Below, in pieces: positions 27,812 through 32,028 of a stretch of 47,326 bases of DNA. Positions within the stretch are counted from its first letter, which is position 1. The number at the start of each line of letters is the position of its first letter. The stretch is taken from sequence record OM418626.1; one strand, written 5' to 3'. The notes under the pieces were generated by a model that did not search any database, had not been told where the DNA came from, and saw only the letters and a list, made by a program, of their open reading frames with translations. The stretch is from Escherichia phage Lambda imm434. A program made the translations under genes and the position numbers.

Positions 27812-28882
27812 TTATTTGATTTCAATTTTGTCCCACTCCCTGCCTCTGTCATCACGATACTGTGATGCCATGGTGTCCGACTTATGCCCGAGAAGATGTT
27901 GAGCAAACTTATCGCTTATCTGCTTCTCATAGAGTCTTGCAGACAAACTGCGCAACTCGTGAAAGGTAGGCGGATCCCCTTCGAAGGAAAGACCTGATGC
28001 TTTTCGTGCGCGCATAAAATACCTTGATACTGTGCCGGATGAAAGCGGTTCGCGACGAGTAGATGCAATTATGGTTTCTCCGCCAAGAATCTCTTTGCAT
28101 TTATCAAGTGTTTCCTTCATTGATATTCCGAGAGCATCAATATGCAATGCTGTTGGGATGGCAATTTTTACGCCTGTTTTGCTTTGCTCGACATAAAGAT
28201 ATCCATCTACGATATCAGACCACTTCATTTCGCATAAATCACCAACTCGTTGCCCGGTAACAACAGCCAGTTCCATTGCAAGTCTGAGCCAACATGGTGA
28301 TGATTCTGCTGCTTGATAAATTTTCAGGTATTCGTCAGCCGTAAGTCTTGATCTCCTTACCTCTGATTTTGCTGCGCGAGTGGCAGCGACATGGTTTGTT
28401 GTTATATGGCCTTCAGCTATTGCCTCTCGGAATGCATCGCTCAGTGTTGATCTGATTAACTTGGCTGACGCCGCCTTGCCCTCGTCTATGTATCCATTGA
28501 GCATTGCCGCAATTTCTTTTGTGGTGATGTCTTCAAGTGGAGCATCAGGCAGACCCCTCCTTATTGCTTTAATTTTGCTCATGTAATTTATGAGTGTCTT
28601 CTGCTTGATTCCTCTGCTGGCCAGGATTTTTTCGTAGCGATCAAGCCATGAATGTAACGTAACGGAATTATCACTGTTGATTCTCGCTGTCAGAGGCTTG
28701 TGTTTGTGTCCTGAAAATAACTCAATGTTGGCCTGTATAGCTTCAGTGATTGCGATTCGCCTGTCTCTGCCTAATCCAAACTCTTTACCCGTCCTTGGGT
28801 CCCTGTAGCAGTAATATCCATTGTTTCTTATATAAAGGTTAGGGGGTAAATCCCGGCGCTCATGACTTCGCCTTCTTCCCAT
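27812..28882 (-). CDS. int: Integrase (tyrosine recombinase)
   Basis: ORF 27812..28882 (356 aa, MGRRRSHERRDLPPNLYIRNNGYYCYRDPRTGKEF...); lambda Int. Confidence 0.93.
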   Translation of the reverse strand: MGRRRSHERRDLPPNLYIRNNGYYCYRDPRTGKEFGLGRDRRIAITEAIQANIELFSGHKHKPLTARINSDNSVTLHSWLDRYEKILASRGIKQKTLINYMSKIKAIRRGLPDAPLEDITTKEIAAMLNGYIDEGKAASAKLIRSTLSDAFREAIAEGHITTNHVAATRAAKSEVRRSRLTADEYLKIYQAAESSPCWLRLAMELAVVTGQRVGDLCEMKWSDIVDGYLYVEQSKTGVKIAIPTALHIDALGISMKETLDKCKEILGGETIIASTRREPLSSGTVSRYFMRARKASGLSFEGDPPTFHELRSLSARLYEKQISDKFAQHLLGHKSDTMASQYRDDRGREWDKIEIK

Positions 28883-29655: not shown

Positions 29656-29846
29656 TTATAAACTCCTTGCAATGTATGTCGTTTCAGCTAAACGGTATCA
29701 GCAATGTTTATGTAAAGAAACAGTAAGATAATACTCAACCCGATGTTTGAGTACGGTCATCATCTGACACTACAGACTCTGGCATCGCTGTGAAGACGAC
29801 GCGAAATTCAGCATTTTCACAAGCGTTATCTTTTACAAAACCGATC

Positions 29847-30395
29847 TCACTCTCCTTTGATGCGAATGCCAGCGTCAGACATCATATGCAGATACTCACC
29901 TGCATCCTGAACCCATTGACCTCCAACCCCGTAATAGCGATGCGTAATGATGTCGATAGTTACTAACGGGTCTTGTTCGATTAACTGCCGCAGAAACTCT
30001 TCCAGGTCACCAGTGCAGTGCTTGATAACAGGAGTCTTCCCAGGATGGCGAACAACAAGAAACTGGTTTCCGTCTTCACGGACTTCGTTGCTTTCCAGTT
30101 TAGCAATACGCTTACTCCCATCCGAGATAACACCTTCGTAATACTCACGCTGCTCGTTGAGTTTTGATTTTGCTGTTTCAAGCTCAACACGCAGTTTCCC
30201 TACTGTTAGCGCAATATCCTCGTTCTCCTGGTCGCGGCGTTTGATGTATTGCTGGTTTCTTTCCCGTTCATCCAGCAGTTCCAGCACAATCGATGGTGTT
30301 ACCAATTCATGGAAAAGGTCTGCGTCAAATCCCCAGTCGTCATGCATTGCCTGCTCTGCCGCTTCACGCAGTGCCTGAGAGTTAATTTCGCTCAC
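29847..30395 (-). CDS. ea22: Ea22
   Basis: ORF 29847..30395 (182 aa). Confidence 0.8.
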   Translation of the reverse strand: MSEINSQALREAAEQAMHDDWGFDADLFHELVTPSIVLELLDERERNQQYIKRRDQENEDIALTVGKLRVELETAKSKLNEQREYYEGVISDGSKRIAKLESNEVREDGNQFLVVRHPGKTPVIKHCTGDLEEFLRQLIEQDPLVTIDIITHRYYGVGGQWVQDAGEYLHMMSDAGIRIKGE

Positions 30396-30613
30396 TTCGA
30401 ACCTCTCTGTTTACTGATAAGTTCCAGATCCTCCTGGCAACTTGCACAAGTCCGACAACCCTGAACGACCAGGCGTCTTCGTTCATCTATCGGATCGCCA
30501 CACTCACAACAATGAGTGGCAGATATAGCCTGGTGGTTCAGGCGGCGCATTTTTATTGCTGTGTTGCGCTGTAATTCTTCTATTTCTGATGCTGAATCAA
30601 TGATGTCTGCCAT
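30392..30613 (-). CDS. orf73: Orf73, TraR/DksA-like C4 zinc-finger protein
   Basis: ORF 30392..30613 (73 aa) with CxxC...CxxC (CCECG ... CRTCASC); stop overlaps ea22 start (ATGA). Confidence 0.65.
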   Translation of the reverse strand: MADIIDSASEIEELQRNTAIKMRRLNHQAISATHCCECGDPIDERRRLVVQGCRTCASCQEDLELISKQRGSK

Positions 30614-30838
30614 CTTTCATTAATCCCTGAACTGTTGGTTAATACGCTTGAGGGTGAATGCGAATAATAAAAAAGGAGCCTGTAGCTCCCTGATGATTTT
30701 GCTTTTCATGTTCATCGTTCCTTAAAGACGCCGTTTAACATGCCGATTGCCAGGCTTAAATGAGTCGGTGTGAATCCCATCAGCGTTACCGTTTCGCGGT
30801 GCTTCTTCAGTACGCTACGGCAAATGTCATCGACGTTT

Positions 30839-31024
30839 TTATCCGGAAACTGCTGTCTGGCTTTTTTTGATTTCAGAATTAGCCTGACGGGCAATGCTGC
30901 GAAGGGCGTTTTCCTGCTGAGGTGTCATTGAACAAGTCCCATGTCGGCAAGCATAAGCACACAGAATATGAAGCCCGCTGCCAGAAAAATGCATTCCGTG
31001 GTTGTCATACCTGGTCTCTCTCAT
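30839..31024 (-). CDS. Orf61 hypothetical protein
   Basis: ORF 30839..31024 (61 aa); matches lambda orf61 position. Confidence 0.5.
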   Translation of the reverse strand: MRETRYDNHGMHFSGSGLHILCAYACRHGTCSMTPQQENALRSIARQANSEIKKSQTAVSG

Positions 31025-31196
31025 CTGCTTCTGCTTTCGCCACCATCATTTCCAGCTTTTGTGAAAGGGATGCGGCTAACGTATGAAATTCTTCGTCTGT
31101 TTCTACTGGTATTGGCACAAACCTGATTCCAATTTGAGCAAGGCTATGTGCCATCTCGATACTCGTTCTTAACTCAACAGAAGATGCTTTGTGCAT
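31005..31196 (-). CDS. Orf63 hypothetical protein
   Basis: ORF 31005..31196 (63 aa); matches lambda orf63 position. Confidence 0.5.
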   Translation of the reverse strand: MHKASSVELRTSIEMAHSLAQIGIRFVPIPVETDEEFHTLAASLSQKLEMMVAKAEADERDQV

Positions 31197-31351
31197 ACAG
31201 CCCCTCGTTTATTATTTATCTCCTCAGCCAGCCGCTGTGCTTTCAGTGGATTTCGGATAACAGAAAGGCCGGGAAATACCCAGCCTCGCTTTGTAACGGA
31301 GTAGACGAAAGTGATTGCGCCTACCCGGATATTATCGTGAGGATGCGTCAT
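31169..31351 (-). CDS. Orf60a hypothetical protein
   Basis: ORF 31169..31357 with start taken at 31351; adjacent to exo. Confidence 0.5.
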
Positions 31352-32028
31352 CGCCATTGCTCCCCAAATACAAAACCAATTTCAGCCAGTGCCTCGTCCA
31401 TTTTTTCGATGAACTCCGGCACGATCTCGTCAAAACTCGCCATGTACTTTTCATCCCGCTCAATCACGACATAATGCAGGCCTTCACGCTTCATACGCGG
31501 GTCATAGTTGGCAAAGTACCAGGCATTTTTTCGCGTCACCCACATGCTGTACTGCACCTGGGCCATGTAAGCTGACTTTATGGCCTCGAAACCACCGAGC
31601 CGGAACTTCATGAAATCCCGGGAGGTAAACGGGCATTTCAGTTCAAGGCCGTTGCCGTCACTGCATAAACCATCGGGAGAGCAGGCGGTACGCATACTTT
31701 CGTCGCGATAGATGATCGGGGATTCAGTAACATTCACGCCGGAAGTGAATTCAAACAGGGTTCTGGCGTCGTTCTCGTACTGTTTTCCCCAGGCCAGTGC
31801 TTTAGCGTTAACTTCCGGAGCCACACCGGTGCAAACCTCAGCAAGCAGGGTGTGGAAGTAGGACATTTTCATGTCAGGCCACTTCTTTCCGGAGCGGGGT
31901 TTTGCTATCACGTTGTGAACTTCTGAAGCGGTGATGACGCCGAGCCGTAATTTGTGCCACGCATCTTCCCCCTGTTCGACAGCTCTCACATCGATCCCGG
32001 TACGCTGCAGGATAATGTCCGGTGTCAT
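31348..32028 (-). CDS. exo: Lambda exonuclease (Red alpha)
   Basis: ORF 31348..32028 (226 aa, [40 protein letters not shown]...). Confidence 0.93.

Follow-up and report, generated by a model that had tools for sequence, protein, structure and literature searches.

Phage lambda orf73 encodes a member of the TraR/DksA family and overlaps ea22

TraR, DksA and the lambda locus

The mechanism of the TraR family was solved structurally between 2017 and 2019. The closest described protein to the one studied here is TraR of the F plasmid (PDB 5W1S, 6N57/6N58 and 6PSQ-6PSV), a 73-aa protein whose gene sits in a conjugation operon. DksA of E. coli (PDB 1TJL, 5VSW and 7KHI) is about 151 aa long, contains a coiled coil of two helices and depends on ppGpp for full activity, and E. 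coli YbiI (PDB 2KGO) is a longer chromosomal protein. Phages also carry members of this family: P2 Orf82, VP882 Orf61, VHML Orf8, X. bovienii Gp34 and the 933W proteins Orf73 and L0141 belong with lambda Orf73, to which the Orf73 proteins of Stx phages show 94-97% identity. Lambda Orf73 itself was studied directly by Gopalkrishnan et al. (mBio 2022; PMC9239242), and phage TraR homologues were found to inhibit the rrnB P1 promoter in the same assays as lambda Orf73.

When compared to F TraR, Orf73 has the same length (73 aa) and about 31-33% identity in Foldseek alignments. Both proteins carry DxxDxA at residues 3-8 in the N-terminal helix, a CxxC-x17-CxxC core with an RR pair downstream of its first CxxC, and a C-terminal helix. 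In the results given in PMC9239242, the inhibition of rrnB P1 by purified Orf73 in the absence of ppGpp had an IC50 of about 50 nM, equal to that of TraR; both proteins are independent of ppGpp and both are competitors of DksA, Orf73 having been assayed against labelled DksA for RNA polymerase. Unlike F TraR, Orf73 is the product of an early operon of a phage, contains two additional cysteines (C36 and C53) and, in the in vitro assays of PMC9239242, activated thrABC, argI and rpoH P3 little or not at all. With DksA, Orf73 has in common the PF01258 zinc finger and the secondary-channel site on RNA polymerase, and in both an acidic DxxDxA element extends towards the active site; however, Orf73 is half the size, has a single helix and is ppGpp-independent. 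We considered Orf73 as a DksA proper and ruled this out on its 73 aa, its lack of a coiled-coil hairpin and its activity without ppGpp. In YbiI, it is the zinc domain alone that aligns, with Orf73 residues 29-65 (E 1e-4; profile E 8e-9).

The window analyzed here is the whole 47,326-nucleotide sequence of Escherichia phage Lambda imm434 (OM418626.1). The original prediction, made from the sequence, had placed a 73-aa ORF at 30392-30613 with no strand given; we confirmed this ORF on the minus strand and identified it as phage lambda orf73. Its features are as follows:

30392..30613, minus strand: orf73 coding sequence, 73 codons and TGA, for a TraR-family secondary-channel factor of RNA polymerase
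30590..30607, minus strand: DxxDxA motif (DIIDSA), codons 3-8, with which the N-terminal helix begins
30437..30511, minus strand: C4 zinc-finger core, CxxC-x17-CxxC, codons 35-59, aligned to the TraR cysteines
30473..30478, minus strand: RR pair, codons 46-47, aligned to TraR R48/R49 ('ARRK' stretch)

The ATG occupies 30613..30611 and the TGA 30394..30392, and translation of the ORF gives MADIIDSASEIEELQRNTAIKMRRLNHQAISATHCCECGDPIDERRRLVVQGCRTCASCQEDLELISKQRGSK. The minus-strand neighbours are int (27812..28882), xis, ea8.5, ea22, orf61, orf63, orf60a, exo, bet and gam, and this part of the genome is lambda's exo-xis region, transcribed from pL. A query of about 1.6 kb around orf73 (29800..31400) was 100% identical to HK630, DE3, Lambda KT232076 and Lambda imm21, and 99.9% identical to J02459 at equal coordinates; this query spans site 31016 but not site 31966. 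Between 28300 and 32900, the window departs from J02459 at these two sites only: it has C in place of T at 31016, where orf61 and orf63 overlap, and T in place of A at 31966, in exo. The J02459 feature table leaves orf73 without annotation, whereas newer lambda records label its product 'TraR/YbiI family protein' or 'DksA/TraR C4-type zinc finger domain-containing protein'. The same J02459 table names ea8.5, ea22, orf61, orf63 and orf60a all 'xis (excision;72)'.

A protein database search revealed 178 homologues, and tblastn matched Orf73 in 571 phage records; the phages with homologues include those of Klebsiella, Salmonella, Vibrio, Pseudomonas and Yersinia. Judging from the Pfam and PHROG matches described below and from these homologue counts, we take orf73 to be a genuine gene and reject a chance ORF. 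We also observed that 'Campylobacter phage CJLB-4' (MW057783.1, 48.4 kb) is 99.9% identical to lambda in the orf73 region and is probably lambda contamination, and that one Orf73-like protein in the database is assigned to a eukaryote set (P0005) and another to Bacillus cereus (P0103).

Family placement, predicted fold and conserved residues

The original prediction had assigned the protein to the TraR/DksA type and had named profile searches as a check; these searches placed Orf73 in that family. Pfam PF01258 (zf-dskA_traR) matched residues 33-64 with 34.8 bits (E 1.6e-8), above the gathering score of 24.9 bits, and PHROG phrog_54 ('DksA-like zinc-finger protein') matched residues 1-71 (E 7.8e-25). 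NCBIfam TIGR02419 (C4_traR_proteo, TraR family) was matched over profile positions 1-64 of 64 at 54.7 bits (E 1.1e-14), which is 5 bits short of its curated cut-off of 59.7 bits. The F-TraR equivalog NF010268 scored 28.3 bits, below its cut-off of 108, and the YbiI family model NF008243 scored 37.2 bits, well below its cut-off of 96; Orf73 as an orthologue of F TraR or of YbiI was ruled out by these equivalog scores far under the cut-offs. By the TIGR02419 shortfall together with the low equivalog scores, Orf73 is a clear homologue but a divergent member of the TraR family and not the F TraR orthologue, and we read it as a paralogue-level relative of F TraR, a different protein. With the single sequence as query, the best PDB sequence match was F-plasmid TraR (5w1s_M; E 2.2e-5, residues 1-64), and the family profile built from 43 sequences matched TraR in the PDB at E 5.8e-9 (residues 1-69). 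The PDB sequence search found no solved structure of Orf73 itself.

A single-sequence AlphaFold2 model of Orf73 (pLDDT 56, pTM 0.28) was too poor for a fold search and was discarded. The model built on the 43-sequence alignment (pLDDT 79.3) contains helices at residues 3-28, 44-49 and 57-71, it has one N-terminal helix, lacks the coiled-coil hairpin of DksA and shows the three-element layout of TraR, namely an N-terminal helix, a zinc domain and a C-terminal helix. A Foldseek search of the PDB with this model returned TraR in RNA polymerase complexes as the top match (6n57_M; probability 1.00, TM 0.52) and as the second (5w1s_M; probability 0.98, TM 0.51), followed by YbiI, DksA and DksA2. The best match had an E of only 9.7e-3 and an rmsd of 10.8 A, and the similarity of the predicted fold to TraR is modest. 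We attribute the large rmsd to helix angles in the model that differ from those of RNA-polymerase-bound TraR; free-state models likewise differ from bound TraR in their helix angles, and Orf73 was modelled on TraR and docked into RNA polymerase earlier (PMC8614690). Taken by sequence, motif and fold, Orf73 belongs to the TraR/DksA family.

Conservation was counted in 43 members of the Orf73 clade (57-97% identity). The N-terminal MADIIDSA aligns to MSDEADEA of TraR, and within it D3 is kept in 42 of the 43 members and D6 and A8 in all of them. The two CxxC pairs that had been read from the sequence, CCECG and CRTCASC, are both present in the product, in which cysteines occupy positions 35, 36, 38, 53, 56 and 59. 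C35, C38, C56 and C59, conserved in 43, 41, 43 and 42 of the 43 members, respectively, align with the zinc ligands of TraR and, by homology to TraR, presumably bind zinc. The RR pair is similarly conserved (R46 in 42/43; R47 in 41/43), and the TraR residues to which it aligns, R48/R49, are described in PMC9239242 as contacting the beta' rim helices and beta'Si3. Overall, D6, A8, C35, C56 and E64 are invariant (43/43), and D3, C38, R46, R47 and C59 nearly so.

The remaining two cysteines, C36 and C53, are extra. C53 is kept in 42/43 clade members, down to 57% identity, and is absent from F TraR; with C56 and C59 it makes a CxxCxxC triad (C53-x2-C56-x2-C59) that has no counterpart in F TraR. C36 is present in 18/43 members, all at least 68% identical to lambda, and is confined to the close E. 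coli group. This conservation pattern is a small addition made by the present analysis. The authors of the Orf73 study noted that the two extra cysteines may be why activation is missing (PMC9239242). It is in our estimate very improbable that C53, with or without C36, reshapes the globular domain by serving as an alternative zinc ligand or a redox-sensitive one; if true, it would account for Orf73 inhibiting without activating transcription, and could tie Orf73 activity to oxidative stress. The exo-xis region is reported to be implicated in peroxide-triggered Stx prophage induction (PMC4699033). A few homologues (among P0031, P0041, P0016 and P0029) have lost a cysteine (C38R or C38Y, C59R and C53G), and both homologues without C38 retain C36; prophage decay or sequencing errors may explain these losses.

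Action of Orf73 on RNA polymerase

The published experiments bear directly on what this protein does. In addition to rrnB P1, Orf73 inhibited rpsT P2, while the RNA-1 promoter was unaffected, and the variants D3N, D6N and D3A/D6A had lost activity or were defective (PMC9239242). Among the five phage homologues assayed with E. coli RNA polymerase, Orf73 was the most potent, the others having IC50 values of 250-800 nM, and induced Orf73 complemented a dksA deletion (PMC9239242). The same source reports that orf73 is expressed early, from pL, and that pL induction of Orf73 in a defective prophage lowered the rRNA precursor to 29% and rpsT mRNA to 45%, with slowed host growth; phage yield was 3-4 fold higher with intact orf73 than in lysogens carrying D3A/D6A or an in-frame deletion.

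These data also decide how the original prediction fared on function. Its proposal that the protein inhibits rRNA promoters early in infection agrees with what is published for Orf73 (rrnB P1, rpsT P2 and expression from pL), and two of its suggested experiments already exist in the literature, namely rrnB P1 transcription with purified protein, which gave inhibition, and ectopic expression, which slowed growth and lowered rRNA precursor and rpsT mRNA (PMC9239242). Family and function were therefore real and correctly read, but previously known by experiment, and the case serves as a positive control in which both had been inferred correctly from the sequence alone.

We conclude, with a probability of about 0.96, that lambda orf73 encodes a TraR-family secondary-channel factor that inhibits rRNA and ribosomal-protein promoters, slows host growth and raises phage yield. 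In the mechanism that we propose, orf73 is transcribed leftward from pL soon after infection or induction. Its product, which binds neither DNA nor ppGpp, enters host RNA polymerase through the secondary channel, where it occupies the site of DksA and TraR. The acidic N-terminal motif would then extend towards the active site, and the zinc domain and C-terminal helix may touch the rim helices, beta'Si3 and betaSi1, as in the TraR structures, from which we infer the exact contacts with RNA polymerase. The resulting conformational change would allosterically destabilise open complexes at kinetically sensitive promoters, such that rRNA and ribosomal-protein promoters are strongly inhibited, host growth is slower and resources are diverted to phage (3-4 fold more). 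RNA polymerase binding, inhibition of rrnB P1 and rpsT P2, dependence on D3/D6 and the effects on growth and yield are experimental results obtained by others, and the published rRNA and RNA polymerase competition tests support the secondary-channel explanation. A phage protein of 73 aa mimics the joint action of DksA and ppGpp, by which host ribosome synthesis is shut off without a stringent response and phage yield goes up.

The ea22 junction, alternative roles and upstream ORFs

The 3' end of orf73 overlaps the next gene, ea22, and the elements of this junction are:

29847..30395, minus strand: ea22 coding sequence, 182 aa (Pfam Ead_Ea22, PF13935, E 1.1e-28; a CDS in J02459)
30392..30395, minus strand: GTGA overlap of the ea22 GTG (30395..30393) with the orf73 TGA (30394..30392), read from the sequence
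30401..30405, minus strand: GAGGT resembling a Shine-Dalgarno sequence for ea22, within the final codons of orf73 and 5 nt upstream of the GTG

The overlap between the orf73 stop and the ea22 start had been noted earlier as ATGA; the overlap is real, but the tetranucleotide is GTGA, with a GTG start that J02459 also annotates. At the Shine-Dalgarno element the minus strand reads ...AACAGAGAGGTTCGAAGTGAGC, and OM418625 annotates the GAGGT as a ribosome-binding site. We examined 80 related IMG/VR loci, in which orf73 is 97-100% identical and which were used for synteny and the junction only, not for protein conservation. The GTGA junction and the GAGG were kept in 80/80 of them, as were the first residues of Ea22 (VSEIN...). 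Past about 13 conserved N-terminal residues, the body of ea22 is strongly mosaic in the loci with an untruncated ea22. In about 30 of the 80 loci (e.g., L004, L005, L008, L009 and L031), ea22 ends after five codons (VSEIN*), at a junction shared by E. coli prophage contigs in which …AATTAACT is joined to AGAAGCCAAAGATAAAATC…; orf73 and the GTGA overlap remain intact in these loci. Folding of the minus strand over 30340..30470 gave no sign of an RNA structure hiding the ea22 start (-33.8 kcal/mol; z = 0.43), as 129 of 200 shuffled sequences folded equally well. From the 4-nt overlap and the conservation of the junction and GAGG, translational coupling of ea22 to orf73 is plausible and, if true, could account for conflicting deletion phenotypes.

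Such a conflict exists over whether Orf73, still acting via RNA polymerase, mainly biases the phage towards lysogeny rather than raising lytic yield. In the Wegrzyn laboratory, deletion of orf73 led to lower host survival after infection and lower lysogenisation efficiency, and orf73 and ea22 were both classed as pro-lysogenic on these assays (PMC8614690); an earlier genetic study, as cited in PMC8614690 and PMC9239242, had found a phage-yield effect of opposite sign and a pro-lysogenic role. The point mutants and in-frame deletion, by contrast, gave the 3-4 fold higher yield with intact orf73 noted above, and the mBio authors ascribed the discrepancy to mutant construction and induction method and raised polar effects downstream (PMC9239242). 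Since orf73 overlaps the pro-lysogenic ea22 at GTGA, polarity on ea22 is a realistic confounder of the orf73 deletion phenotypes. We regard a mainly pro-lysogenic role as unlikely.

Another alternative is that Orf73 is part of a 'bin' function, together with ea22, ea8.5 and orf55, that mainly blocks initiation of host replication, for example through lower dnaA transcription. Earlier work cited in PMC9239242 ties orf73 and three neighbours to such a block, and Orf73 inhibited dnaA P2 and P1 in vitro, with IC50 values of about 420 nM and about 1.7 uM, respectively (PMC9239242). These values are, however, 8-30 fold above that for rrnB P1, and a weak drop, if any, was seen in dnaA mRNA with Orf73 from a single-copy prophage (PMC9239242). 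An effect on replication may also be indirect, via rRNA shut-off or supercoiling changes, and we consider replication as the main target to be improbable. Finally, there is practically no chance that the product is a generic small zinc ribbon that looks like TraR/DksA without acting on RNA polymerase. In favour of this reading, small phage proteins frequently have CxxC pairs, the TIGR02419 score lies slightly under its cut-off and the single-sequence AlphaFold2 model is poor (pLDDT 56). Against it, the TraR match is full-length and takes in the N-terminal DxxDxA besides the zinc finger, and published assays of in vitro transcription and of competition with DksA have already refuted it by showing that Orf73 binds RNA polymerase and inhibits specific promoters (PMC9239242).

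Two further observations concern the DNA upstream of orf73. Lambda orf61 (30839..31024, minus strand) and a 60-aa unannotated ORF (30712..30894, minus strand, other frame) both match phrog_303, orf61 as the N-terminal half and the 60-aa ORF as the C-terminal half of this 101-position profile. Lambda has a run of seven A's here (T7 at 30862..30868 on the plus strand) where 70/76 scorable related loci have six, and the six-A loci encode a single uninterrupted protein of about 93-103 aa. The split of lambda orf61 appears to be caused by a one-base homopolymer insertion; lambda Orf61 has been described as truncated (PMC8614690). Closer to orf73, a 31-aa ORF (30620..30715, minus strand; TAATGAAAGATG), for which searches of Pfam and PHROG gave no match, stops 6 nt before the start codon of orf73. 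In its length and position this ORF fits 'orf2313', a 31-aa peptide detected by lambda ribosome profiling according to PMC8614690.
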